Assembly (NCBI GenBank): GCA_949288035.1
Contig: CASEIJ010000049.1
Location: 663-64,662, forward strand
Direction of reading: 5' to 3'
Source: an uncultured Mycoplasmatota bacterium
GTDB lineage: Bacteria; Bacillota_I; Bacilli_A; RF39; UBA660
Length of the DNA stretch: 64,000 bases
How positions within the stretch are numbered: position 1 is the stretch's first letter; each line of letters opens with the position of its first letter. Shown here piece by piece: positions 3,917 to 64,000 of the stretch. The position numbers and the translations under genes were made by a program. Under the pieces are notes generated by a model. It saw only the letters and a program-made list of their open reading frames with translations. It was not told the origin of the DNA and searched no databases.

Positions 3917-5029
3917 TTACACCTCATCTTTACTGATTAATTTTCCATCATGAATATGAATTAAAGATGCATTTTCAATTAATTTTGAATCTAATAATTC
4001 TAATTCAGTTGTTGTTATAATTGTTTGTGTATCATGATTAATATGTTTTAGTAAATTATTTCTTTTATGAAAATCCAATTCACTAAAAACATCATCCAAT
4101 AATAAAATCGGAGTATCTTTCTTATAATCTTGAAACAATTTGATTTCAGCTAATTTTAAGGAAAGTACAGCCATTCTTTGTTGTCCTTGAGAACCATACA
4201 ATTTTAATAAATTGCCATTTAACAGAAATTCTAACTCATCTTTATGTGGTCCAACTAAGGTAACCCCCAATCTTTTTTCCGTTTCATGATGCTTTTTTAA
4301 TTTATCTAACAATTGTGATTGGTAAGTATTTTGGCTTAATAAATCAATATTTGTATGATAATTCAAGGAAAATCCATTCAATCCTGATATATCTTTAAAT
4401 ATTTCAGGTATATATTGATTTAATTTATCAACAAATTTTTTACGCATTTTATAAATTAAACCAGCTTTATCTGTAAAATATTGATCTAAAATTGAAAGAT
4501 AACTTTCATCCACATATTCACCCTTTACATATTGTTTTAAACAATCATTTCTCATTTTCAATAATTTATTATAATCATTTAAAACATCTAAATAGGTGGT
4601 ATATAATTGTGATAATTCAAGATTCATAAATCTTCTACGTAGAGATGGGCCTCCCTTAATTAAATCTAAATCTTCTGGATAAAAAATAATAAGATTCATA
4701 TGAGAAATGTAGTCACTTATTTTTTTTATCTCATTATGATCAATTTTTAATAATTTTTTAGTTTTAGAAATTCCTAACTCTAATGTAGTAGTTTGATCTT
4801 GGAAAACAACATTCCCTTGAATATAAGCAGTAGACTCATCTTTTTGAATTAATGTATTATCAATAAAAGATCTATGAGATTTTGTCATTCCCAATACATA
4901 AATTGCTTCTAATAAATTTGTTTTTCCTTGAGCATTATTTCCATAAATAATATTCACAGAGGGTTGAAACGAAACTTGAAAGTCATCATAATTACGAAAA
5001 TGACTTACATAAATATTTTTTAAATACAT
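3917..5029 (-). CDS. recF: DNA replication/repair protein RecF
   Basis: MYLKNIYVSHFRNY..., Walker A GNNAQGKTNLLEA, and LLLDDVFSELD. The start was moved from the GTG at 5050, which lies inside the GAGGGAGG SD, to the ATG at 5029. Confidence 0.93.
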   Translation of the reverse strand: MYLKNIYVSHFRNYDDFQVSFQPSVNIIYGNNAQGKTNLLEAIYVLGMTKSHRSFIDNTLIQKDESTAYIQGNVVFQDQTTTLELGISKTKKLLKIDHNEIKKISDYISHMNLIIFYPEDLDLIKGGPSLRRRFMNLELSQLYTTYLDVLNDYNKLLKMRNDCLKQYVKGEYVDESYLSILDQYFTDKAGLIYKMRKKFVDKLNQYIPEIFKDISGLNGFSLNYHTNIDLLSQNTYQSQLLDKLKKHHETEKRLGVTLVGPHKDELEFLLNGNLLKLYGSQGQQRMAVLSLKLAEIKLFQDYKKDTPILLLDDVFSELDFHKRNNLLKHINHDTQTIITTTELELLDSKLIENASLIHIHDGKLISKDEV

Positions 5030-5160
5030 ATCCTCCCTCTTTTCCACCAAAAACGCTGTTATTTTGAGTTTACTATATAAAAGGTACTCCTATACACACT
5101 TACTATTATACCACATATAAGCGGCAAAAAATAAAAAAACAAGTAAAATTACCTGTTTTT

Positions 5161-5610
5161 TTATAATATTTTTCTTTTTCTCAAGACTGATTCTAATTTG
5201 GTAGCTCTTAATATTTGATTTTCTAGCGAACCATATGAAATATCTAATTCAACATTTTTACCACATTGAAAATATAAAATAGATTTTTCTTCATAACGAA
5301 TATGATTTTTAACATGATTTAAAGCTATCCAAGCACATTTAGGAAATCTTGGAGAAGCAGTTGGAAAAAAAATAATGGATTGCGTTTCCTCAATAATAAT
5401 TGGTGCTTTATAATTGATACCAGTTAAATGTTTGGTTCCTGCATGTCTTCCTAGATAAGAACTTCCAAATGAACGACAACTATAGTCAATAATTTGACTA
5501 GGAGTTTTATTCACTAAAAAACTATCTTGTCTCTCTAAAACTTTTGTAACATGCGTACCAACAGGTAGCAAAGCTAGTGTATTTGAATTAACTTCATATT
5601 CATTTACCAT
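5161..5610 (-). CDS. ComK-family competence transcription factor-like protein
   Basis: By eye it aligns along its whole length to B. subtilis ComK as I remember it: YEVN..T.A.LP, SCRSFGSSYLGRHAGT, KAPIII, IFFPTASPRFPKCAWI, ISYGSLENQ. The track GTG at 5619 is part of the GGAGGTGA SD, so I use the ATG at 5610. Confidence 0.75.
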   Translation of the reverse strand: MVNEYEVNSNTLALLPVGTHVTKVLERQDSFLVNKTPSQIIDYSCRSFGSSYLGRHAGTKHLTGINYKAPIIIEETQSIIFFPTASPRFPKCAWIALNHVKNHIRYEEKSILYFQCGKNVELDISYGSLENQILRATKLESVLRKRKIL

Positions 5611-5708
5611 TTTTTTCACCTCCTCTATTAATAATGTTCGACAAAAGATGTCGAATGTCCTTTACTTTATCAAAAAAAAGTGAAAAAAATGTCATTTTAT
5701 GTCAAAAC

Positions 5709-5733
5709 ACAAAAAAAAGAACATAATGTTCTT
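5709..5733 (-). terminator. Rho-independent terminator after dnaN
   Basis: Arms AAGAACA (5717-5723) and TGTTCTT (5727-5733) are followed on the minus strand by a T-run (plus-strand A-run 5709-5716). It overlaps the dnaN stop. Confidence 0.55.
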
Positions 5734-6854
5734 TAATATGTACGGATTGGTAAAATCAATTGTATTAAATTATCACTCTCAGGATTTTTAAGAATAATTG
5801 GTTTAATTTCACCATTAAATAATAGCTCTACTTCTTCACTTTCAAATGATTTCAATGCATCCATCATATATTTACTACTAAATGCGATTTTTATCTCTTG
5901 ATCATGATTTTTTTGTACATTTAATTTTTCTTCTACATTACCAATTTCTGGAATATTAGATGAGACAATAATTTCATTTCCTTTACTTTGTAATTTTATT
6001 GTATTTTTATCTGCTTCATTTGTTAATAAAGATGCACGGTCAATAGAATTAAAGAAATCTCTGTAATTAACACGCATCGTTAATTCAAATTCCGTTGGAA
6101 TTAATTTTGATGTATTTGGATATGTTCCATTAATTAATCGAGACATCATAATAATAGAACTAAATTTAAATATAACTTTATTATTAAATACATGCATCTC
6201 TAATTGTTCATCTTCATCGTTAAATAAACGAATCAATTCGTTTAAATTTTTTGTAGGGATAACAATATCTGTTGCATCTTGTAATAAACTTTGGATTTCA
6301 ACGGTTTTTTTAGCTAAACGATAAGAATCCGTTGCTGTACATTCCAAAACATTTCCTTCAAAATGAAAATTAATGCCTGTCAAAATTGGTCTTGACTCTT
6401 GTGTTGAAGTAGCAAAAGATGTTTGTATAATAATATTTTTAAATAATTTTTGAGAAATATAAACAGGTGTTTTACTATCTTCTAATTCTAAATTAGGAAA
6501 TTCTGATACATTATTACAATTTAAATGAAATGAAGAATTTTGTGTATAAATATAAAGTTTTGAATCGACAACTTCTTCTATATTAATTAATTCGTTAGGT
6601 AATTTTCTAATAATTTCGTATATATATCTACCTGAAACAACAATTTCTCCTGTTGTGTCTATATTATCAATATCATTTTTATTAATAAATGTTTTTATAG
6701 CTACTTCATTATCAGTACTCATTAAATATAATCCATCATTTGTTAATTCAAATTTAATACAATTTAATATTGGTATTAAATTTTTGTTAGAAATTCCCCT
6801 AATTACATAATTTAAATGCTCCATTAATTTGTTTTGTTTAATTGTTAATTTCAT
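5733..6854 (-). CDS. dnaN: DNA polymerase III beta sliding clamp
   Basis: 373 aa starting MKLTIKQNKL; it ends ...LILPIRTY, typical of beta clamps. It sits directly downstream of dnaA. Confidence 0.95.
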   Translation of the reverse strand: MKLTIKQNKLMEHLNYVIRGISNKNLIPILNCIKFELTNDGLYLMSTDNEVAIKTFINKNDIDNIDTTGEIVVSGRYIYEIIRKLPNELINIEEVVDSKLYIYTQNSSFHLNCNNVSEFPNLELEDSKTPVYISQKLFKNIIIQTSFATSTQESRPILTGINFHFEGNVLECTATDSYRLAKKTVEIQSLLQDATDIVIPTKNLNELIRLFNDEDEQLEMHVFNNKVIFKFSSIIMMSRLINGTYPNTSKLIPTEFELTMRVNYRDFFNSIDRASLLTNEADKNTIKLQSKGNEIIVSSNIPEIGNVEEKLNVQKNHDQEIKIAFSSKYMMDALKSFESEEVELLFNGEIKPIILKNPESDNLIQLILPIRTY

Positions 6855-6906
6855 TGTGTATACCTTCTTTCTTGTATTTATTTTATAAATGTATTTATAT
6901 TATAAA

Positions 6907-6978
6907 AGTGGATAATGTGGAAAAAACAAAATATAGATGAAAAATAATATCAAAATACCATTTACTGATTGTGGATAA
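6907..6978. other. oriC, dnaA-dnaN intergenic DnaA-box cluster with adjacent AT-rich tract
   Basis: AGTGGATAA (6907-6915, 1 mismatch), TGTGGAAAA (6916-6924, 1 mismatch) and a perfect TGTGGATAA (6970-6978), against the consensus TTATCCACA/TGTGGATAA. A very AT-rich stretch lies at 6880-6906. Confidence 0.7.
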
Positions 6979-7006
6979 AAAGTATATAAAATTCTTTTTT
7001 ACACAC

Positions 7007-8359
7007 TTATTTAATTTGAGTAATAATTTTTTGAATTTCCATCTCTAAAATGGGATTTTTTTTCATTTCATTTTTTATCTTTTCCACGGAGTGCATAACT
7101 GTTGTATGATCTTTTCCACCAAATTCAATTCCAATCTTTGGCAAAGATTCTTCTAATACAGTTCTACATATATACATTGCAATTTGGCGTGGAACTGCAA
7201 TTGATGCCATTCTTTTTTTACTCTTTAAGTCTTCCACAGTAATATTATAATTACTTGCCACAAGTTGTTGTACTTGATCAATTTTATTTTTAGCCACCAC
7301 ACTTTTAGCAAAATAGTCTTTTAGGGCTTCAATGGCTAAATCTAGTGTAATATCTGATCCATTCATCATAGTAGCATATGCCACTACCCGTGTAATAGCC
7401 CCTTCAAGTTTTCGTATATCACTTGTACAATTACTAGCAATATATTCTTTTACTTCTTTAGGAAACGCATTAGACATGACCTGCCCTTCCAATTTTTTAT
7501 CAATAATATCCATTCGCAATTTAAAATCTGGTGGGAGAATATCTATAGTAAGACCCCAGTTAAACCTTGTACGTAAACGATCTTCCAACAATTTTAAATC
7601 ATCAGGAGAACGATCAGAAGAAATAATAATTTGTTTGTTATTTCCATACAAATCATTAAATGTGTTGAAAAATTCTTGTTGAGTTTGATTTGCATTTCCT
7701 AAATATTGAATATCATCAATCATTAACACATCAATATCACGATATTTTCTTTTAAAAATATCCACACTATCAAAATTATTTCCTTCTTTATTCTTTTTAT
7801 TAATTCCTATAAAATCAGAAACAAATTTTTCACTTGTTACATATAAAACTCTTTTTTTACTATTTTTTATAATATAGTTTCCAATAGCATGCATTAAATG
7901 GGTTTTACCTAGTCCACTATTTCCATATATAAATAAAGGATTATACATAAATCCAGGTTTTTCAGCGACAGCTAGAGAGGTTGCTTTGGCAAATTTATTA
8001 CTAGAGCCGACAATAAAGTTATCAAATGTATATAGAGGATTTAAATTTGTTTCATATTCATTAATAGCCGGAACTCCTACATTGTCTGTATCAATTTCAA
8101 TATTTTTTTCGACTTCTTCTTTTGTTACATATTCAAATTGAAAATTAGTTCCTGTAATTTCTGCAAATGTTTCTTGGATTAGATCATTATAATTTTCTTT
8201 TAAATGTTTTTTATGAACATGCATTGGAACTAATACGGTTGCATGATTTTCTTTTAATTCGATTAATTCTGTTTCCATGAACCATGTTTCAAAAAGCATG
8301 GGTGATATATTTTCTTTCATTTTTTCTAGAAAAGTTTTCCACAAAGTTTTGTTATCCAT
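7007..8359 (-). CDS. dnaA: Chromosomal replication initiator DnaA
   Basis: Walker A GNSGLGKTHLMHAIGN, MIDDIQ, and a C-terminal DNA-binding domain ...FGGKDHTTVMHSVEKI. The GAGGTGA SD is placed for the ATG at 8359 (MDNKTLWKTF...) rather than 8386. Confidence 0.96.
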   Translation of the reverse strand: MDNKTLWKTFLEKMKENISPMLFETWFMETELIELKENHATVLVPMHVHKKHLKENYNDLIQETFAEITGTNFQFEYVTKEEVEKNIEIDTDNVGVPAINEYETNLNPLYTFDNFIVGSSNKFAKATSLAVAEKPGFMYNPLFIYGNSGLGKTHLMHAIGNYIIKNSKKRVLYVTSEKFVSDFIGINKKNKEGNNFDSVDIFKRKYRDIDVLMIDDIQYLGNANQTQQEFFNTFNDLYGNNKQIIISSDRSPDDLKLLEDRLRTRFNWGLTIDILPPDFKLRMDIIDKKLEGQVMSNAFPKEVKEYIASNCTSDIRKLEGAITRVVAYATMMNGSDITLDLAIEALKDYFAKSVVAKNKIDQVQQLVASNYNITVEDLKSKKRMASIAVPRQIAMYICRTVLEESLPKIGIEFGGKDHTTVMHSVEKIKNEMKKNPILEMEIQKIITQIK

Positions 8360-58925: not shown

Positions 58926-59002
58926 GGCGGTATTGGTGAAGTGGTTAACACGGCTGACTGTGACTCAGTTATGCATCGGTTCGAATCCGATATACCGCCC
59001 CA
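58926..59002 (+). tRNA. tRNA-His (anticodon GTG) with encoded G-1 and CCA
   Basis: Hand-folded. G-1 at 58926 pairs with C73. The acceptor stem is GCGGTAT/ATACCGC, the anticodon arm is GCTGA-CTGTGAC-TCAGT (anticodon GTG), and the T arm is ATCGG-TTCGAAT-CCGAT. The 3' CCA is at 59000-59002. Confidence 0.9.
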
Positions 59003-59013
59003 AAATAGAGTTG

Positions 59014-59039
59014 AACTAGGGAATAATCCTAGTTTTTTT
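59014..59039 (+). terminator. Rho-independent terminator after tRNA-His
   Basis: Arms AACTAGG (59014-59020) and CCTAGTT (59028-59034), followed by a T-run. Confidence 0.65.
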
Positions 59040-59174
59040 GTGCCTTAAAGTTAATAAAACATAAAGATGATGAGCTATTTTATTATGTATAGAAAAGCTT
59101 TTTGCAACTTTGTTGATTTACTATTTAGTATGATACATGCTATAATAATGAAGGAAAATGTTAGGTGAAGTTAT

Positions 59175-60011
59175 ATGAGTGAAAAAGATTTAGATTCTAG
59201 TATGAATCCATATCAAGAAAAACAAAAGCCTAAGGGTTATATAAAACAATTACAATGGGATATGGCGATTGGATTACAACAAGTAGATAATTTAAAACCA
59301 TCTAAATATCTTGAACAGATTAGTGAAAAAAATATTTCAGGTGAATTAACAATCAAAGAAGTAGAACAAAGTTTAAGAAAATATTACACTACAAAAGAAA
59401 AACAAAAAGATATTAATCATAATGAATTAGAATGCGACTTTGTATCTATGAGAATTGTTGAACTGTTAAATCAAGATAATTTCGAATTATCAGTAGATTA
59501 TCTAAAATATATTTATAAATATTTATTTCAAGATGTTTATGAATTTGCAGGAGAATTTAGAAAAATTGATTTCTCTAAACATGAAAAAATATTAAATAAC
59601 GATTCAGTTGCTTATGGAGATTCTAAAACATTAACAGAATCATTAGAATATGATATTAGTCAAGAAAAAGAAAAGAATTATAAAGATATGTCCATTGTAG
59701 AAGTGATTAAAAATATTACTGATTTTACATCTAGTATATGGCAAGTACATCCCTTTAGAGAAGGTAATACTAGAACAACAGCAGTATTTATAGAAAAATA
59801 TTTAGTTAGTTTAGGATACAATGTAGATAACTCATTATTCAAAGATAAATCAGTATATTTTAGAAATGCATTAGTTAGAAGTAATTACTTTAATAATTAT
59901 TTAAATATAAAAGAGGATAAAAGTTATTTAATTAAGTTTTATGAGAATTTATTATTAGGTAAAAATAATAATTTACATTCTGAAGATTTGATTGTAAAAG
60001 AGTTATTTTAG
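59175..60011 (+). CDS. Fic/Fido-domain protein with an N-terminal VbhA-like helix module and a non-canonical active-site motif
   Basis: The Fic motif reads HPFREGNTRTTA against the canonical HxFx(D/E)GNGRxxR. The N-terminal GLQQVDNLKPS...ISGELTIKEVE resembles the VbhA/alpha-inh module. There is a strong SD and a TGcTATAAT extended -10 at 59138-59146. Confidence 0.8.
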   Translation: MSEKDLDSSMNPYQEKQKPKGYIKQLQWDMAIGLQQVDNLKPSKYLEQISEKNISGELTIKEVEQSLRKYYTTKEKQKDINHNELECDFVSMRIVELLNQDNFELSVDYLKYIYKYLFQDVYEFAGEFRKIDFSKHEKILNNDSVAYGDSKTLTESLEYDISQEKEKNYKDMSIVEVIKNITDFTSSIWQVHPFREGNTRTTAVFIEKYLVSLGYNVDNSLFKDKSVYFRNALVRSNYFNNYLNIKEDKSYLIKFYENLLLGKNNNLHSEDLIVKELF

Positions 60012-60021
60012 GAGGGGTACT

Positions 60022-60339
60022 ATGCAAGAGTTAACAAAAAAAATTAAAGAGTTTAATGAAGAACGTGACTGGGATCAATTTCATAGTCCTGAAAATTTGG
60101 CAAAATCAATATCAATAGAAGCAGGAGAATTATTGGAATGTTTTCAATGGAATTCTAATTATAATATTAAAGAAGTAAAATCAGAACTTGCAGATGTAAT
60201 TAACTATGCATTATTGCTGGCAGATAAATTAGGAGTGGATCCTGAGAAAATTGTTTTGGATAAAATGAAAATTACAGCAAAAAAGTATCCAATAGAAAAA
60301 GCTAAAGGAGTAAGTACAAAATATACAAAGTTAAAATAA
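60022..60339 (+). CDS. MazG-like all-alpha nucleoside-triphosphate pyrophosphohydrolase
   Basis: 105 aa with RDWDQFHSPENLAKSISIEAGELLECFQW and ELADVINYALLLA (metal-binding E/D ladder). AGGAGGGG SD; it starts 10 nt after the Fic stop. Confidence 0.8.
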   Translation: MQELTKKIKEFNEERDWDQFHSPENLAKSISIEAGELLECFQWNSNYNIKEVKSELADVINYALLLADKLGVDPEKIVLDKMKITAKKYPIEKAKGVSTKYTKLK

Positions 60340-60367: not shown

Positions 60368-62245
60368 ATGTTAGTGTATGAAGGAGTAAAATCAAGTTTT
60401 ATTAATGATGTCAACTTAAATCTCATTGTAAATAAAATTTATGAAAAATATCAAAAATATTTTGGAAGAACAAGTGATTCTCAATTAAACTCGTGGAAAA
60501 ATTCTATGCAATATATGCGAGGTGTATTAGATGACAATGAAATACCAGACAATGCAGGAGTAGCTATTGAATTTAATATTCCAACGACTTCTAAAAGAAT
60601 AGACTTTATTCTATCTGGTAGAGATAGAAATAAAAAAGATTCTGTTATTATTATAGAACTAAAGCAATGGGAAAAATGTGACGCAGTAGAAGGAAAAGAC
60701 GGAATTGTTTCTACTTTTACTGGGCATGCAATAAGAGAAGTTACACATCCGTCATATCAAGCTATGAGCTATGCTAATTTAATTAAAGACTTTAATGAAA
60801 CAGTGCAGTTAGAAGATATAGGTTTATATCCTTGTGCTTTTCTACATAACTATGTATTAAATGAAGATGATCCAATTTGCAGTAGTCAATATCAAGAATA
60901 CATAAAAGAAGCTCCAATGTTTGGGGCTAATGATTTTATGAAACTAAGAAGTTTTATAAAAAGATATATTCTTGAGGGTGATGATAGAGAAACTTTATAT
61001 AAAATTGAAAATGGGAAAATAAGACCATCCAAAAGACTACAAGACTCACTTACTACAATGTTACAAGGCAATAAAGAGTTCAACATGATTGATGAGCAGA
61101 AAGTAATCTATGAAGATGCTATTAGAATGGCTATAGATACTTTATCAGCAAATGAGAAAAATGTATTGGTTGTACAAGGAGGACCAGGTACCGGGAAATC
61201 AGTTTTAGCAATTAATTTATTGGTTGAACTTACTAACAGAAATATGACTTGTTTCTATGTAACCAAGAATGCAGCGCCAAGGGCGGTCTTTAGAGATAAA
61301 TTAAAAGGCTCGTTTAAAATGACATATATTAATAATTTATTTCAAGGATCAGGACAGTTCACAGAAGCCGAAAGCAATGAAGTTGATTGTTTGATTGTAG
61401 ATGAAGCGCATAGATTAAATGCGAAATCTGGAATGTTCCAAAACTTAGGAGAAAATCAAATTAAAGAGCTTATCAATGCTTCCAATTTTTCAATATTCTT
61501 TATTGATGAAGACCAAAAAGTTACACTAAAAGATATTGGTTCAGTAGATGAAATAAAGAAATATGCTAAAGAATTAAATGCAGGAATAAAAATAGTAGAG
61601 CTAGAAAGTCAATTTAGATGTAATGGATCTGATGGATATCTTGCTTGGTTAGACAATGTTTTAGATATAAGAAAAACGGCAAATTTCGATGGTATGGACT
61701 TCGACTATGATTTTAGAGTAGTAGATAATCCGAATGAACTAAGAAAATTAATAGAAGAAAAAAATAAAATAAATAATAAGTCAAGATTAGTTGCTGGATA
61801 TTGTTGGGATTGGATTAGTAGTGGTAAAAATGATTCTAATGTTCATGATATAGTTATTCCAGAATACAATTTTGAAATGAGTTGGAATTTAGGAAATTCA
61901 CAAACATGGGCAATTGATCCTTTGTCAATAAACGAAGTAGGGTGTATCCATACATGTCAAGGGTTAGAATTCGACTATGTAGGAGTAATAATAGGTGAGG
62001 ATATTAGATATGAAAATGGAAAAATTATTACAGATTACACAAAAAGAGCTAAAACAGATCAATCATTAAAAGGAATTAATAAAATTGCCAAAGAACAAGG
62101 TCAAGAAGTAGCAAATCAAATAGCAGATAAAATAATAAAAAATACATATAGAACTTTAATGACAAGGGGAATGAAAGGTTGCTATGTATATTGTATAGAC
62201 AAAAAATTACAACAATATTTAAAAAATAAAATTAGAATAAATTAA
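60368..62245 (+). CDS. DUF2075-type protein: N-terminal PD-(D/E)xK-like nuclease core fused to an SF1/Schlafen-like P-loop NTPase
   Basis: RIDFILSG...SVIIIELKQWEK (D...ExK pattern), Walker A VQGGPGTGKSVLA, Walker B CLIVDEAHRL, CIHTCQGLEFDYVGVIIG and LMTRGMKGCYVY. It starts 28 nt after the MazG stop. Confidence 0.8.
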   Translation: MLVYEGVKSSFINDVNLNLIVNKIYEKYQKYFGRTSDSQLNSWKNSMQYMRGVLDDNEIPDNAGVAIEFNIPTTSKRIDFILSGRDRNKKDSVIIIELKQWEKCDAVEGKDGIVSTFTGHAIREVTHPSYQAMSYANLIKDFNETVQLEDIGLYPCAFLHNYVLNEDDPICSSQYQEYIKEAPMFGANDFMKLRSFIKRYILEGDDRETLYKIENGKIRPSKRLQDSLTTMLQGNKEFNMIDEQKVIYEDAIRMAIDTLSANEKNVLVVQGGPGTGKSVLAINLLVELTNRNMTCFYVTKNAAPRAVFRDKLKGSFKMTYINNLFQGSGQFTEAESNEVDCLIVDEAHRLNAKSGMFQNLGENQIKELINASNFSIFFIDEDQKVTLKDIGSVDEIKKYAKELNAGIKIVELESQFRCNGSDGYLAWLDNVLDIRKTANFDGMDFDYDFRVVDNPNELRKLIEEKNKINNKSRLVAGYCWDWISSGKNDSNVHDIVIPEYNFEMSWNLGNSQTWAIDPLSINEVGCIHTCQGLEFDYVGVIIGEDIRYENGKIITDYTKRAKTDQSLKGINKIAKEQGQEVANQIADKIIKNTYRTLMTRGMKGCYVYCIDKKLQQYLKNKIRIN

Positions 62246-62469: not shown

Positions 62470-62500
62470 AAAAAAGTAGTGAGATTCAAACTCACTACTT
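62470..62500 (-). terminator. Hairpin terminator after the DUF2188 gene
   Basis: Arms AAGTAGTGAG (62474-62483) and CTCACTACTT (62491-62500). The plus-strand A-run at 62470-62473 gives the minus-strand T-run. Confidence 0.6.
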
Positions 62501-62514
62501 TACTTTAATTTTTT

Positions 62515-62739
62515 CTATCCTCGTGGTGGATAGGGATCGTTACCATAGGAATTACTGCCTTGAATTTTTCCGTTTAATCCGTGAATAATAAGTTCGCTTT
62601 GTTGATTTTGTGCAATTCTCTTTCCTACTTTAATAGCTTGTTCTTTTGTAGAAAGTATATGGCTAGGTTTAGAATTTCCGGCCCCTAATACATTCCATCC
62701 GCCGTTCGGATTATGAGTAATATGGTAATTTTTACCCAT
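62515..62739 (-). CDS. DUF2188-family small protein
   Basis: MGKNYHITHNPNGGWNVLGAGNSKPSHILSTKEQAIKVGKRIAQNQQSELIIHGLNGKIQ..., the DUF2188 pattern. The AAAGGAGG SD serves the ATG at 62739; the upstream part of the track ORF lacks coding character. Confidence 0.75.
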   Translation of the reverse strand: MGKNYHITHNPNGGWNVLGAGNSKPSHILSTKEQAIKVGKRIAQNQQSELIIHGLNGKIQGSNSYGNDPYPPRG

Positions 62740-62974
62740 AAATATATATCCTCCTTTATCTGCCAAAACTAAAAATTGCTTTTTAGAAAAAGAATGTGAT
62801 ATAATTATGTTGCGGAGAATAACCATATCACTTGGCTATTTTCTTTTTTTGTCTTAAGACAATACTATTTTAACATCAAGAGTGGAGCAAAGTCAATATA
62901 AAAAAGTTAAAAAAGTTTTCTAAAACGCTTTACTTTGTCCCAGAAAAACACTAAAATAATAGTAGGTGATAAAT

Positions 62975-64000
62975 ATGAAAAAAATTGATGTTATTAACTT
63001 AATCAAATACTATTCAGAAAAGAATGATTATGCTTTTAGAAATGAAGCATACAAAATTGCACATGATTTTGATAAAGAAGGAGATATACAACTTGCAGAA
63101 TATATTATGGCCTTGTTATCAGATACCAATACATTTGTTCCGCAGTCTTATGATTATTTATCTACTTTTTTTGAAAAAGTAGAAATTACAAATTCTTCTT
63201 TACCATTGCCAGAAGTAATTAAAAATGATATTTTGGGTATCATTAATGCAATTGGACATAATGTTGGTATTAATAAGTTTCTATTTGAGGGGCTACCGGG
63301 GACTGGAAAAACAGAAAGTGTAAAACAGATTGCAAGAATATTAAATAGAGAATTATATATATCTAACTTTGATGCAATTATTGATAGCAAATTAGGTCAA
63401 ACTTCTAAAAATATTTCTAAAGCATTTAATGAAATTAATAAATTACCACACCCAGAAAAAATAATAATTTTATTTGATGAAATAGATGCATTAGCCATGG
63501 ATAGAATGAATAATAATGATTTGCGAGAGATGGGGAGAGCTACTTCCACTTTGTTAAAAGAACTTGATAAGTTAAATGAAAATATTGTTTTAATTGCTAC
63601 TACTAATCTATTTGAATCATTTGATAAGGCGTTAATTAGAAGGTTTGATGCGGTAATTAATTTTAACAGATATAAAAAAGAGGATTTAATTGATGTGGCA
63701 GAATCCATTTTAAATGAATATTTGGAAAAAATAACATGGGCTGCCAAAGATATAAAATTATTTAGAAAAATAGTTGGTTTAATGAACCCATTGATTTACC
63801 CTGGAGATTTGAAAAACATAATTAAAACTTCATTAGCATTCAGCAATCCATCCAATCAATATGATTATTTAATTAGATTATATGAAGCGATTACATCGAA
63901 AAAAATTAATGGTAATATTAAAATACTGCAAGAGCAGAAATTTACCGTTAGAGAAATAGAACATTTAACTGGAATTTCAAAAAGTCAAGTTTCTAGGGGG
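62975..64000 (+). CDS. AAA+ ATPase (classic AAA clade) with a helical N-domain and a C-terminal HTH-like segment; 3' end runs off the window
   Basis: Absent from the ORF track (no in-window stop). I read 342 open codons from the ATG at 62975 after TAGGTGA. Motifs: Walker A FEGLPGTGKTES, Walker B IIILFDEIDAL, sensor-1 LIATTN, Arg region ALIRRFD, and near the end REIEHLTGISKSQVSR (HTH-like). Confidence 0.8.
   Translation, partial: MKKIDVINLIKYYSEKNDYAFRNEAYKIAHDFDKEGDIQLAEYIMALLSDTNTFVPQSYDYLSTFFEKVEITNSSLPLPEVIKNDILGIINAIGHNVGINKFLFEGLPGTGKTESVKQIARILNRELYISNFDAIIDSKLGQTSKNISKAFNEINKLPHPEKIIILFDEIDALAMDRMNNNDLREMGRATSTLLKELDKLNENIVLIATTNLFESFDKALIRRFDAVINFNRYKKEDLIDVAESILNEYLEKITWAAKDIKLFRKIVGLMNPLIYPGDLKNIIKTSLAFSNPSNQYDYLIRLYEAITSKKINGNIKILQEQKFTVREIEHLTGISKSQVSRG

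Follow-up and report, generated by a model that had tools for sequence, protein, structure and literature searches.

The window considered here is a 64,000-nucleotide stretch of contig CASEIJ010000049.1 (positions 663 to 64,662, forward strand) from an uncultured Mycoplasmatota bacterium, and it carries a gene for a MazG-like nucleoside triphosphate (NTP) pyrophosphatase directly followed by a gene for a nuclease-helicase. Judged from its sequence, the nuclease-helicase is distantly but genuinely related to the Nhi-like anti-phage proteins and counts as a member of that kind; its architecture is already known. What looks new beyond that kind is the conserved partner, which resembles a deoxycytidine triphosphate (dCTP) pyrophosphatase, together with a slot for further genes between the two. 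We hold it somewhat probable that the pair is an anti-phage, or anti-mobile-DNA, operon, with a Nhi-like nuclease-helicase as its effector and an active DCTPP1-type MazG-like enzyme beside it, set in a defence island linked to tRNA-His. The genome is 1.19 Mb in size and belongs to an uncultured gut-type lineage of Bacilli; the window is AT-rich, with a G+C content of about 29%.

The nuclease-helicase is encoded by an intact open reading frame, with an AAGGAG ribosome-binding site on its 5' side. The initial annotation of this DNA had named six motifs, and each of them could be placed at residue and nucleotide positions of this frame, as given below with the two domains and the catalytic codons.

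60368..62245, plus strand: nuclease-helicase gene, 625 amino acids, ATG start
60368..61087, plus strand: N-terminal domain, residues 1-240, PD-(D/E)xK / RecB-like core by invariant residues, topology and the Nhi-like alignment
60569 (E68), 60602 (D79), 60656 (E97), 60662 (K99), 60758 (Q131) and 60770 (Y135), plus strand: catalytic codons
60596-60619, plus strand: RIDFILSG, residues 77-84
60644-60670, plus strand: VIIIELKQW, residues 93-101
61157..62200, plus strand: DUF2075 / SLFN-g3 helicase domain of superfamily 1B (SF1B), residues 264-611, PF09848 (SLFN-g3_helicase, formerly DUF2075), E 2.6e-108
61178-61201, plus strand: Walker A GGPGTGKS, residues 271-278
61391-61417, plus strand: LIVDEAHRL, residues 342-350, with the Walker B DEAH itself at 61400-61411
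61955-61981, plus strand: motif V region CQGLEFDYV, residues 530-538
62162-62179, plus strand: arginine-finger motif TRGMKG, residues 599-604

Conservation was read from an alignment of 69 full-length homologues, 31-56% identical to the query and drawn from 1.84 billion cluster representatives. The invariant positions are E68, D79, E97, K99, W101, P128 and Y135 in the N-terminal half, and G271/G274/G276/K277, D345/E346, D380, Q383, R417, Q531/G532 and R600 in the helicase half. Because they are invariant across the homologues, the quoted motifs are under selection and chance is excluded. Near relatives of the protein number in the thousands in gut and rumen metagenomes.

The topology predicted for the N-terminal half runs from a helix (37-54) through three strands (64-70, 77-85 and 91-99) and an inserted beta-hairpin region to a second helix (128-142) and a final strand (152-159). 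This alpha-beta-beta-beta-alpha-beta order is the one expected of a PD-(D/E)xK core. D79 opens the second strand, E97-x-K99 lies within the third, and H127-P-S-Y-Q131-x-x-x-Y135 supplies the conserved QxxxY motif, a signature characteristic of the RecB, Cas4 and Dna2 families and typical of DNA nucleases. The predicted local distance difference test score (pLDDT) of this region in the AlphaFold2 models is 87.8-93, the lower value being that of the domain modelled separately. The claim that a nuclease core of the PD-(D/E)xK type is fused to a superfamily 1 (SF1) NTPase was thereby borne out, as the invariant D...ExK, the upstream E and the QxxxY motif all sit on the expected elements of a confident model.

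In the helicase half, PF09848 is matched over its full model length (positions 1-354), and the AlphaFold2 model of the whole protein, built from the 69-sequence alignment, has a mean pLDDT of 93.3 and a predicted template modelling score (pTM) of 0.92. Foldseek matched this model in the PDB to the SF1B helicases DSH9, SLFN11, SLFN14, RecD2, Dna2, Dda, Upf1 and nsp13, with E from 2.5e-10 to about 1e-6. A sequence search of the PDB with the full protein and with an N-terminal profile returned nothing informative. The Pfam match, together with the invariant Walker A, DEAH and TRGMKG motifs, agrees with the SF1 NTPase that had been proposed for the C-terminal half, and the equation of DUF2075 with the Schlafen group-3 helicase family was correct, as both the Pfam name and the SLFN11 and SLFN14 fold matches indicate.

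The Schlafen-like architecture proposed at the same time holds for this helicase half and fails for the nuclease half. Schlafen group 3 (SLFN11, SLFN14) shares a homologous helicase domain (PF09848; Foldseek E 3.8e-10 to 7zel) and a common nuclease-plus-helicase logic; however, Schlafens carry an RNase of the AlbA_2 type in the nuclease position, where the window protein has a domain of the restriction-endonuclease type. SLFN_AlbA_2 was sought in residues 1-260 and gave no match, and a Schlafen (AlbA_2) nuclease identity was rejected on the lack of a Pfam match and on N-terminal fold matches to restriction-type nucleases. Through its helicase domain, the protein could still be pictured as a Schlafen-like RNase of abortive infection, whose helicase would sense phage nucleic acid and whose N-terminal nuclease would cut tRNA or mRNA. 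Binding of single-stranded DNA by the SLFN11 helicase activates its tRNase (PMC12330615), and RNA cleavage is reported for some PD-(D/E)xK enzymes (10.1101/2025.07.10.664194). We regard this as quite improbable, since the N-terminal domain is not the Schlafen nuclease and bears the RecB-like QxxxY signature of DNA nucleases, and since DNA is the target of Nhi and Nhi-like, the closest relatives of the protein that have been characterised. For an SF1B helicase with a RecB-like nuclease attached, DNA would be the expected substrate, and the tRNA target that the initial annotation had raised is unlikely.

What that annotation had missed is that a named and tested anti-phage type of this design exists. 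Nhi is SERP2475 of Staphylococcus epidermidis; its nuclease or helicase mutants lose immunity, the accumulation of phage DNA is blocked, and one Nhi homologue was reported to be toxic on over-expression (10.1101/776245, Bari et al.). Nhi-like, from Bacillus cereus FSL H8-0482, was described as having a "domain organization identical to Nhi", and its anti-phage activity was verified in B. subtilis (10.1101/2022.05.11.491447, Millman et al. 2022). It protects as a single gene, and phage escapes it by losing a DNA methylase (10.1101/2022.08.27.505566). Fusions of DUF2075 to PD-(D/E)xK and GIY-YIG nucleases, and DUF2075 genes adjoining DUF3427 enzymes, were already recorded in a 2019 paper (PMC6765204).

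For comparison, we used residues 1-399 of the verified B. cereus protein, taken from the supplementary table of 10.1101/2022.05.11.491447. In hhalign, the family profile aligned to it with a probability of 99.0% and E 2.3e-18; the 329 aligned columns extend from the nuclease core as far as the first RecA domain. The register places "IEFNIP..KRIDFIL...IIIELKQW" against "IFEYEIL..RRPDILL...IVIECKSY", with the E, the D and the ExK matched. Since the profile alignment puts the catalytic residues in register with those of the verified Nhi-like protein, membership of that kind follows. By BLASTP the relation is detected in residues 193-349 alone (E 7e-9), a stretch that covers the linker and the Walker region. 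Both proteins place a PD-(D/E)xK nuclease before a DUF2075 helicase in about 610-625 residues, and both occur in defence islands; the difference is that about 85-90% of the loci of the window clade have a DCTPP1-like gene as well. Nhi itself shares the PD-(D/E)xK nuclease and an SF1B helicase overlapping DUF2075, but it has a C-terminal glyoxalase-like domain, absent from the window protein, and no reported MazG partner. PADLOC gave partial matches to AbiO (2e-18, helicase core), PDC-S41 (8.7e-18, N-terminal half) and Nhi (1.4e-16, residues 240-420). AbiO and the candidate PDC-S41 are both listed as single-gene systems and resemble the protein over part of their profiles; because model coverage is incomplete, the window protein would not be called either of them.

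The Dna2 and RecB family offers a further parallel, with a RecB-like nuclease (D, ExK, QxxxY) placed N-terminal to an SF1B motor and a fold match to Dna2 (5ean). Unlike Dna2, the window protein has no Fe-S cysteine cluster, its helicase is of the DUF2075 subfamily, and it is an accessory island gene rather than a housekeeping one. The parallel gives some room to a reading in which the pair serves Dna2-like DNA repair or replication restart on mobile elements and is no immune system. A LexA/UmuD-type S24 domain on close relatives, which links the family to DNA-damage signalling, and Y-family polymerase genes near some MazG copies fit this as well. Nevertheless, we consider it very unlikely in view of the patchy, horizontally transferred distribution, the consistent placement of the genes among defence systems, and the homology to proteins with demonstrated anti-phage activity.

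The S24 domain is an additional C-terminal one, found in the nearest 50%-cluster representatives (P0121, P0124, P0130, P0187 and P0196; at most 58% identity), where it suggests a RecA-dependent control by self-cleavage; relative P0168 has a PIF1 helicase in place of the S24 tail. A degraded LexA-type S24 tail was sought 3' of the window gene, and neither a tail nor a remnant was found.

The partner of the nuclease-helicase lies immediately upstream.

60022..60339, plus strand: MazG-like all-alpha NTP pyrophosphatase, 105 amino acids, DCTPP1/RS21-C6 type, PF12643 E 6.5e-20

Its stop codon lies 28 nucleotides ahead of the nuclease-helicase start. It matches dCTP pyrophosphatase 1 / RS21-C6 in the PDB (2a3q/6sqw) with E 1.8e-16, the C-terminal KYT.L included, and it contains the EXXE(12-28)EXXD metal-binding motif of the all-alpha NTP pyrophosphatases. 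The metal-site residues E33, E36, E55 and D58 (EXXE...EXXD) are invariant in 31 partner proteins, and because of this an enzymatic role is to be expected. The mammalian DCTPP1/RS21-C6 enzymes share both the metal site and the KYT.L end; they differ in that the window homologue is bacterial, has 105 residues and a predicted substrate, and is encoded inside a defence operon. Mammalian DCTPP1 prefers 5-modified dCTP.

The association of the two genes is conserved, and it was seen from both sides. On the helicase side, relatives of 58-98% identity were sampled at 80 genome loci. In 69 of the 80, a MazG-like gene adjoins the helicase gene on the same strand, mostly upstream and in seven loci downstream, and this pairing spans Bacilli, Clostridia, Saccharibacteria, Cyanobacteria, Methanobrevibacter, Thermoplasmatota and others. 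Three of the 11 loci that have no MazG-like neighbour end at a contig edge on the upstream side, where the gene usually sits. An independent sample was drawn with the Pfam model over 299 evenly sampled genomes; among its best 29 loci, with the window's own excluded and flanks of about 1.5 kb, 15 have a MazG-like gene within 1.5 kb. Starting from the MazG side, a DUF2075 homologue adjoins the gene in 23 of 30 metagenome loci of this MazG-like clade with at least 2.5 kb on each side. Loci that are alike in one gene tend to be alike in the other: over 2145 pairs, the pairwise identities of the two correlate with a Spearman coefficient of 0.68, uncorrected for phylogeny. The functional coupling to the upstream MazG-like gene that had been suspected is thus upheld, in so far as all three samples show a conserved partner.

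Pairs of this kind also occur on mobile elements. Plasmids of Bacillus thuringiensis/cereus encode a DUF2075 protein that is 25% identical to the one in the window; upstream of it they carry an HNH gene and the gene of a different all-alpha NTP pyrophosphatase, of the PRA-PH type, so that the pairing theme reaches beyond the window clade. PP438423.1 (L081), a 22 kb record deposited as Microcystis phage Mwe-JY31, carries a MazG-like/DUF2075 pair with a Rep3-type plasmid initiator and a TPR protein; no annotated virion genes lie within the stretch read, and the record looks more plasmid-like than phage-like. The pairs on plasmids and on this Rep3-bearing record, along with the frequency of MazG-family genes in phages, would suit a mobile element's own toolkit, either for counter-defence or for addiction, with a MazG-like enzyme that could destroy host immune nucleotides. 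This we rate as highly improbable: phage records carrying the pair are few (4 of 50,697, with at least 5 relatives confirmed in a viral-contig scan), the neighbours are defence and not anti-defence genes, and the MazG-like protein belongs with the DCTPP1 enzymes, which act on deoxynucleoside triphosphates (dNTPs) rather than on cyclic oligonucleotides.

Several loci depart from the simple pair. Two DUF2075 genes stand in tandem or flank one MazG-like gene in L088 (a Hymenobacter canadensis plasmid, 4001-7987), L129, L145, L158 and L181, and this doubling suggests duplication or stacking of the module. Four MazG-like genes with no DUF2075 neighbour (L150, L153, L155 and L170) lie 3' of a Y-family-polymerase-like gene and a 129-residue gene (106 residues in L170). 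In L150, L153 and L155, a conserved 220-residue protein of no assigned function is encoded 3' of the MazG-like gene, and in L170 the MazG-like domain is fused into a 455-residue protein.

The space between the two genes is a variable slot: the MazG-like and helicase genes stand 150 bp to 3.5 kb apart in about half of the loci, with unrelated genes filling the gap. These include HNH nucleases, ApeA (HEPN), PD-T7-4 (DUF4145), PDC-S64, Hypoth_Ymh, a GIY-YIG-DUF2075 protein and several genes that found no match, as well as a type IV methyl-directed restriction enzyme (PLD-helicase-DUF3427) that PADLOC recognises as mREase_IV with E 1.6e-226. The gene 3' of MazG starts 8-12 nucleotides past the stop codon, and its ribosome-binding site overlaps that stop (TAA/TAG-GGAG). 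Direct repeats or recombination sites flanking the slot genes were looked for and none was found; the junctions resemble one another no more than shuffled controls do (z mostly -1.8 to 2.4), and because they stay at that level no integron-like site is evident.

The arrangement of the slot bears on a possible regulatory role, in which the MazG-like protein would be a regulator or antitoxin that silences the nuclease-helicase, by binding it until infection or by destroying a small-molecule signal. The tight operon linkage with the overlapping ribosome-binding site, the co-inheritance of the two genes and the toxicity of an over-expressed Nhi homologue (10.1101/776245) are what one would expect of such a pair. 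Yet the two genes are often parted by unrelated ones, the helicase gene is also found alone, the verified Nhi-like protein works with no partner, and the invariance of all four catalytic metal-binding residues points to an enzymatic function. We therefore judge a regulator or antitoxin unlikely.

In the operon that we favour, the SF1B (DUF2075) motor would use ATP to load onto the DNA of an invader during its replication, where that DNA is single-stranded or forked, and to travel along it. Cleavage of the invader DNA by the RecB-like PD-(D/E)xK domain at the N-terminus would follow, so that the accumulation of phage DNA stops. We infer this action, and with it a defence activity of the window copy and a DNA substrate, because the protein is homologous to Nhi and Nhi-like. 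The MazG-like protein, probably co-transcribed, would be an active deoxynucleotide pyrophosphatase that draws on the nucleotide pool, with dCTP or 5-modified dCTP as its likeliest substrate. As an outcome, phage may be starved of (modified) precursors, or modified dCTP from degraded phage DNA may be kept from host DNA.

A number of observations weigh against this operon. In the columns aligned with Nhi-like, identity is only about 21%, and no more than part of the nuclease-helicase is covered by the PADLOC models for Nhi and AbiO. The assignment of the N-terminal fold comes mainly from motifs, topology and the Nhi-like alignment, and fold searches support it weakly. Pfam finds no family in the N-terminal 240 residues, and single family members give marginal matches to NERD, RE_NgoBV and HSDR_N_2. 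Foldseek with the separately modelled domain found no PDB match at E <= 0.001; the list is weak, headed by Card1 (E 0.011, template modelling score 0.30), and its top consists mostly of PD-(D/E)xK proteins, namely Card1, Shedu, EcoO109I, MspJI, SfsA, EndoMS, BstEII and Exo5. A viral fold library returned PD-(D/E)XK nuclease superfamily proteins, herpesvirus UL24 and Mrr, and of its two matches at E <= 0.001, one has no UniProt name and the other is called simply a C2H2-type domain protein. On the side of the partner, Nhi-like was verified as a single gene, on a cloned fragment that contained no MazG gene, and about 10% of close relatives have no MazG-like gene; for these reasons the partner is not essential for all family members. 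The helicase gene is missing from 7 of the 30 MazG-seeded loci, and the substrate proposed for the MazG-like protein is taken from mammalian DCTPP1 alone.

A narrower version, which we regard as possible and put forward tentatively, is that the MazG-like protein and the nuclease-helicase form an undescribed bipartite defence module against modified-cytosine DNA, and that the slot after the MazG stop is a reusable expression slot. The Nhi-like nuclease-helicase would then attack methylated or hypermodified phage DNA, a target to which the escape of phage from the verified Nhi-like through loss of a DNA methylase points. The DCTPP1-type enzyme would destroy 5-modified dCTP and deny the phage its modified precursor; alternatively, it would ensure that the host chromosome is not marked for self-attack by modified dCTP that has been salvaged. 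The slot, for its part, would repeatedly capture defence genes, such as type IV methyl-directed enzymes, HNH, ApeA, PD-T7-4 and a second DUF2075 protein. An aim at modified-cytosine DNA is suggested, not shown, by the preference of DCTPP1 and by the recurrence of type IV methyl-directed enzymes in the slot.

Nhi-type nuclease-helicases have been catalogued as single-gene defences, and the large, horizontally mobile clade described here is nearly always accompanied by a dCTP-pyrophosphatase-like partner that looks catalytically intact. If the partner contributes, direct attack on nucleic acid and control of the (modified) dNTP pool would be joined in one operon, and the DCTPP1 family would gain a bacterial role. 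MazG NTP pyrophosphohydrolase is among the predicted, unvalidated defence domains of DefensePredictor (PMC13092281), and nothing beyond that prediction came from a literature search on MazG and defence. A full-text search found no relevant paper joining DUF2075 and MazG, nor MazG and Schlafen, and the pairing with a dCTP-pyrophosphatase-like gene across many phyla looks undescribed. Practically, the slot between the two genes is a place to seek further defence genes. As defence-finder models cover the window clade only in part, such loci may stay unannotated.

The module sits in an accessory defence island that starts directly 3' of a tRNA-His gene, and the surrounding features are these.

58927..59002, plus strand: tRNA-His (GTG), found by ARAGORN
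59013-59035: terminator-like hairpin after tRNA-His
59117..59146, plus strand: promoter-like site TTTACT-18-TATAAT with TG, before the Fic gene (consensus scan 10/12; a pattern match only)
59175..60011, plus strand: Fic-domain protein, 278 amino acids, first gene of the operon (Pfam Fic E 2.1e-11; PADLOC PDC-S72 E 1.6e-83)
62473..62501, strand not assigned: strong bidirectional terminator-like hairpin with an 11-bp stem, between the convergent nuclease-helicase and DUF2188 genes
62515..62826, minus strand: DUF2188 protein (PADLOC candidate PDC-S16), an island neighbour outside the module (Pfam E 1.5e-20; PADLOC E 6.5e-32)
62966..64000, plus strand: IetA AAA+ ATPase, running off the window end (PADLOC IetA E 6.2e-43; NCBIfam IteA_antiphage 4.9e-34)

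The promoter-like site is probably, by its sequence, the start of a transcription unit comprising the Fic, MazG-like and nuclease-helicase genes. From there to the helicase stop only one terminator-like site occurs, a weaker 8-bp hairpin at 60910-60928 inside the helicase gene. In 12 of the 80 loci a Fic gene immediately precedes the MazG-like one, which makes Fic an optional member of the module; the active-site motif of the window's Fic protein is non-canonical, reading HPFREGNTRTTA at residue 192 as against HxFx(D/E)GNGRxxR.

Downstream, the order is DUF2188, IetA, IetS, a 501-residue SLFN_AlbA_2 protein and a SWIM protein, followed by housekeeping genes. The IetA-IetS pair, a known anti-phage system of an AAA+ ATPase and an S8 subtilase, is complete (window 62966-64000 and L091:4629-7908). 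The SLFN_AlbA_2 protein (E 7e-11) comes right after it at L091:7911-9416, or about 66248-67753 in window numbering. With an AlbA_2 gene and a DUF2075 gene in one island, the halves of group-3 Schlafens occur here as separate genes a few kb apart. Elsewhere, the neighbours of the module include Hachiman HamB, PARIS AriA, AbiL (AbiLi), type IV restriction enzymes, ApeA and methyltransferases; the PADLOC tally of 148 non-redundant neighbours behind this is descriptive and lists families, not the share of neighbours matched.

The distribution of the nuclease-helicase gene is patchy, with a copy in 4 of 41 related genomes, and a DUF2075 gene is present in 68 of the 299 evenly sampled genomes. DUF2075 genes of G051, G084, G090, G091, G094 and others contain 3-9 in-frame TGA codons, in genomes that read TGA as sense, which places the family in Mycoplasma-like lineages of the same class as well.

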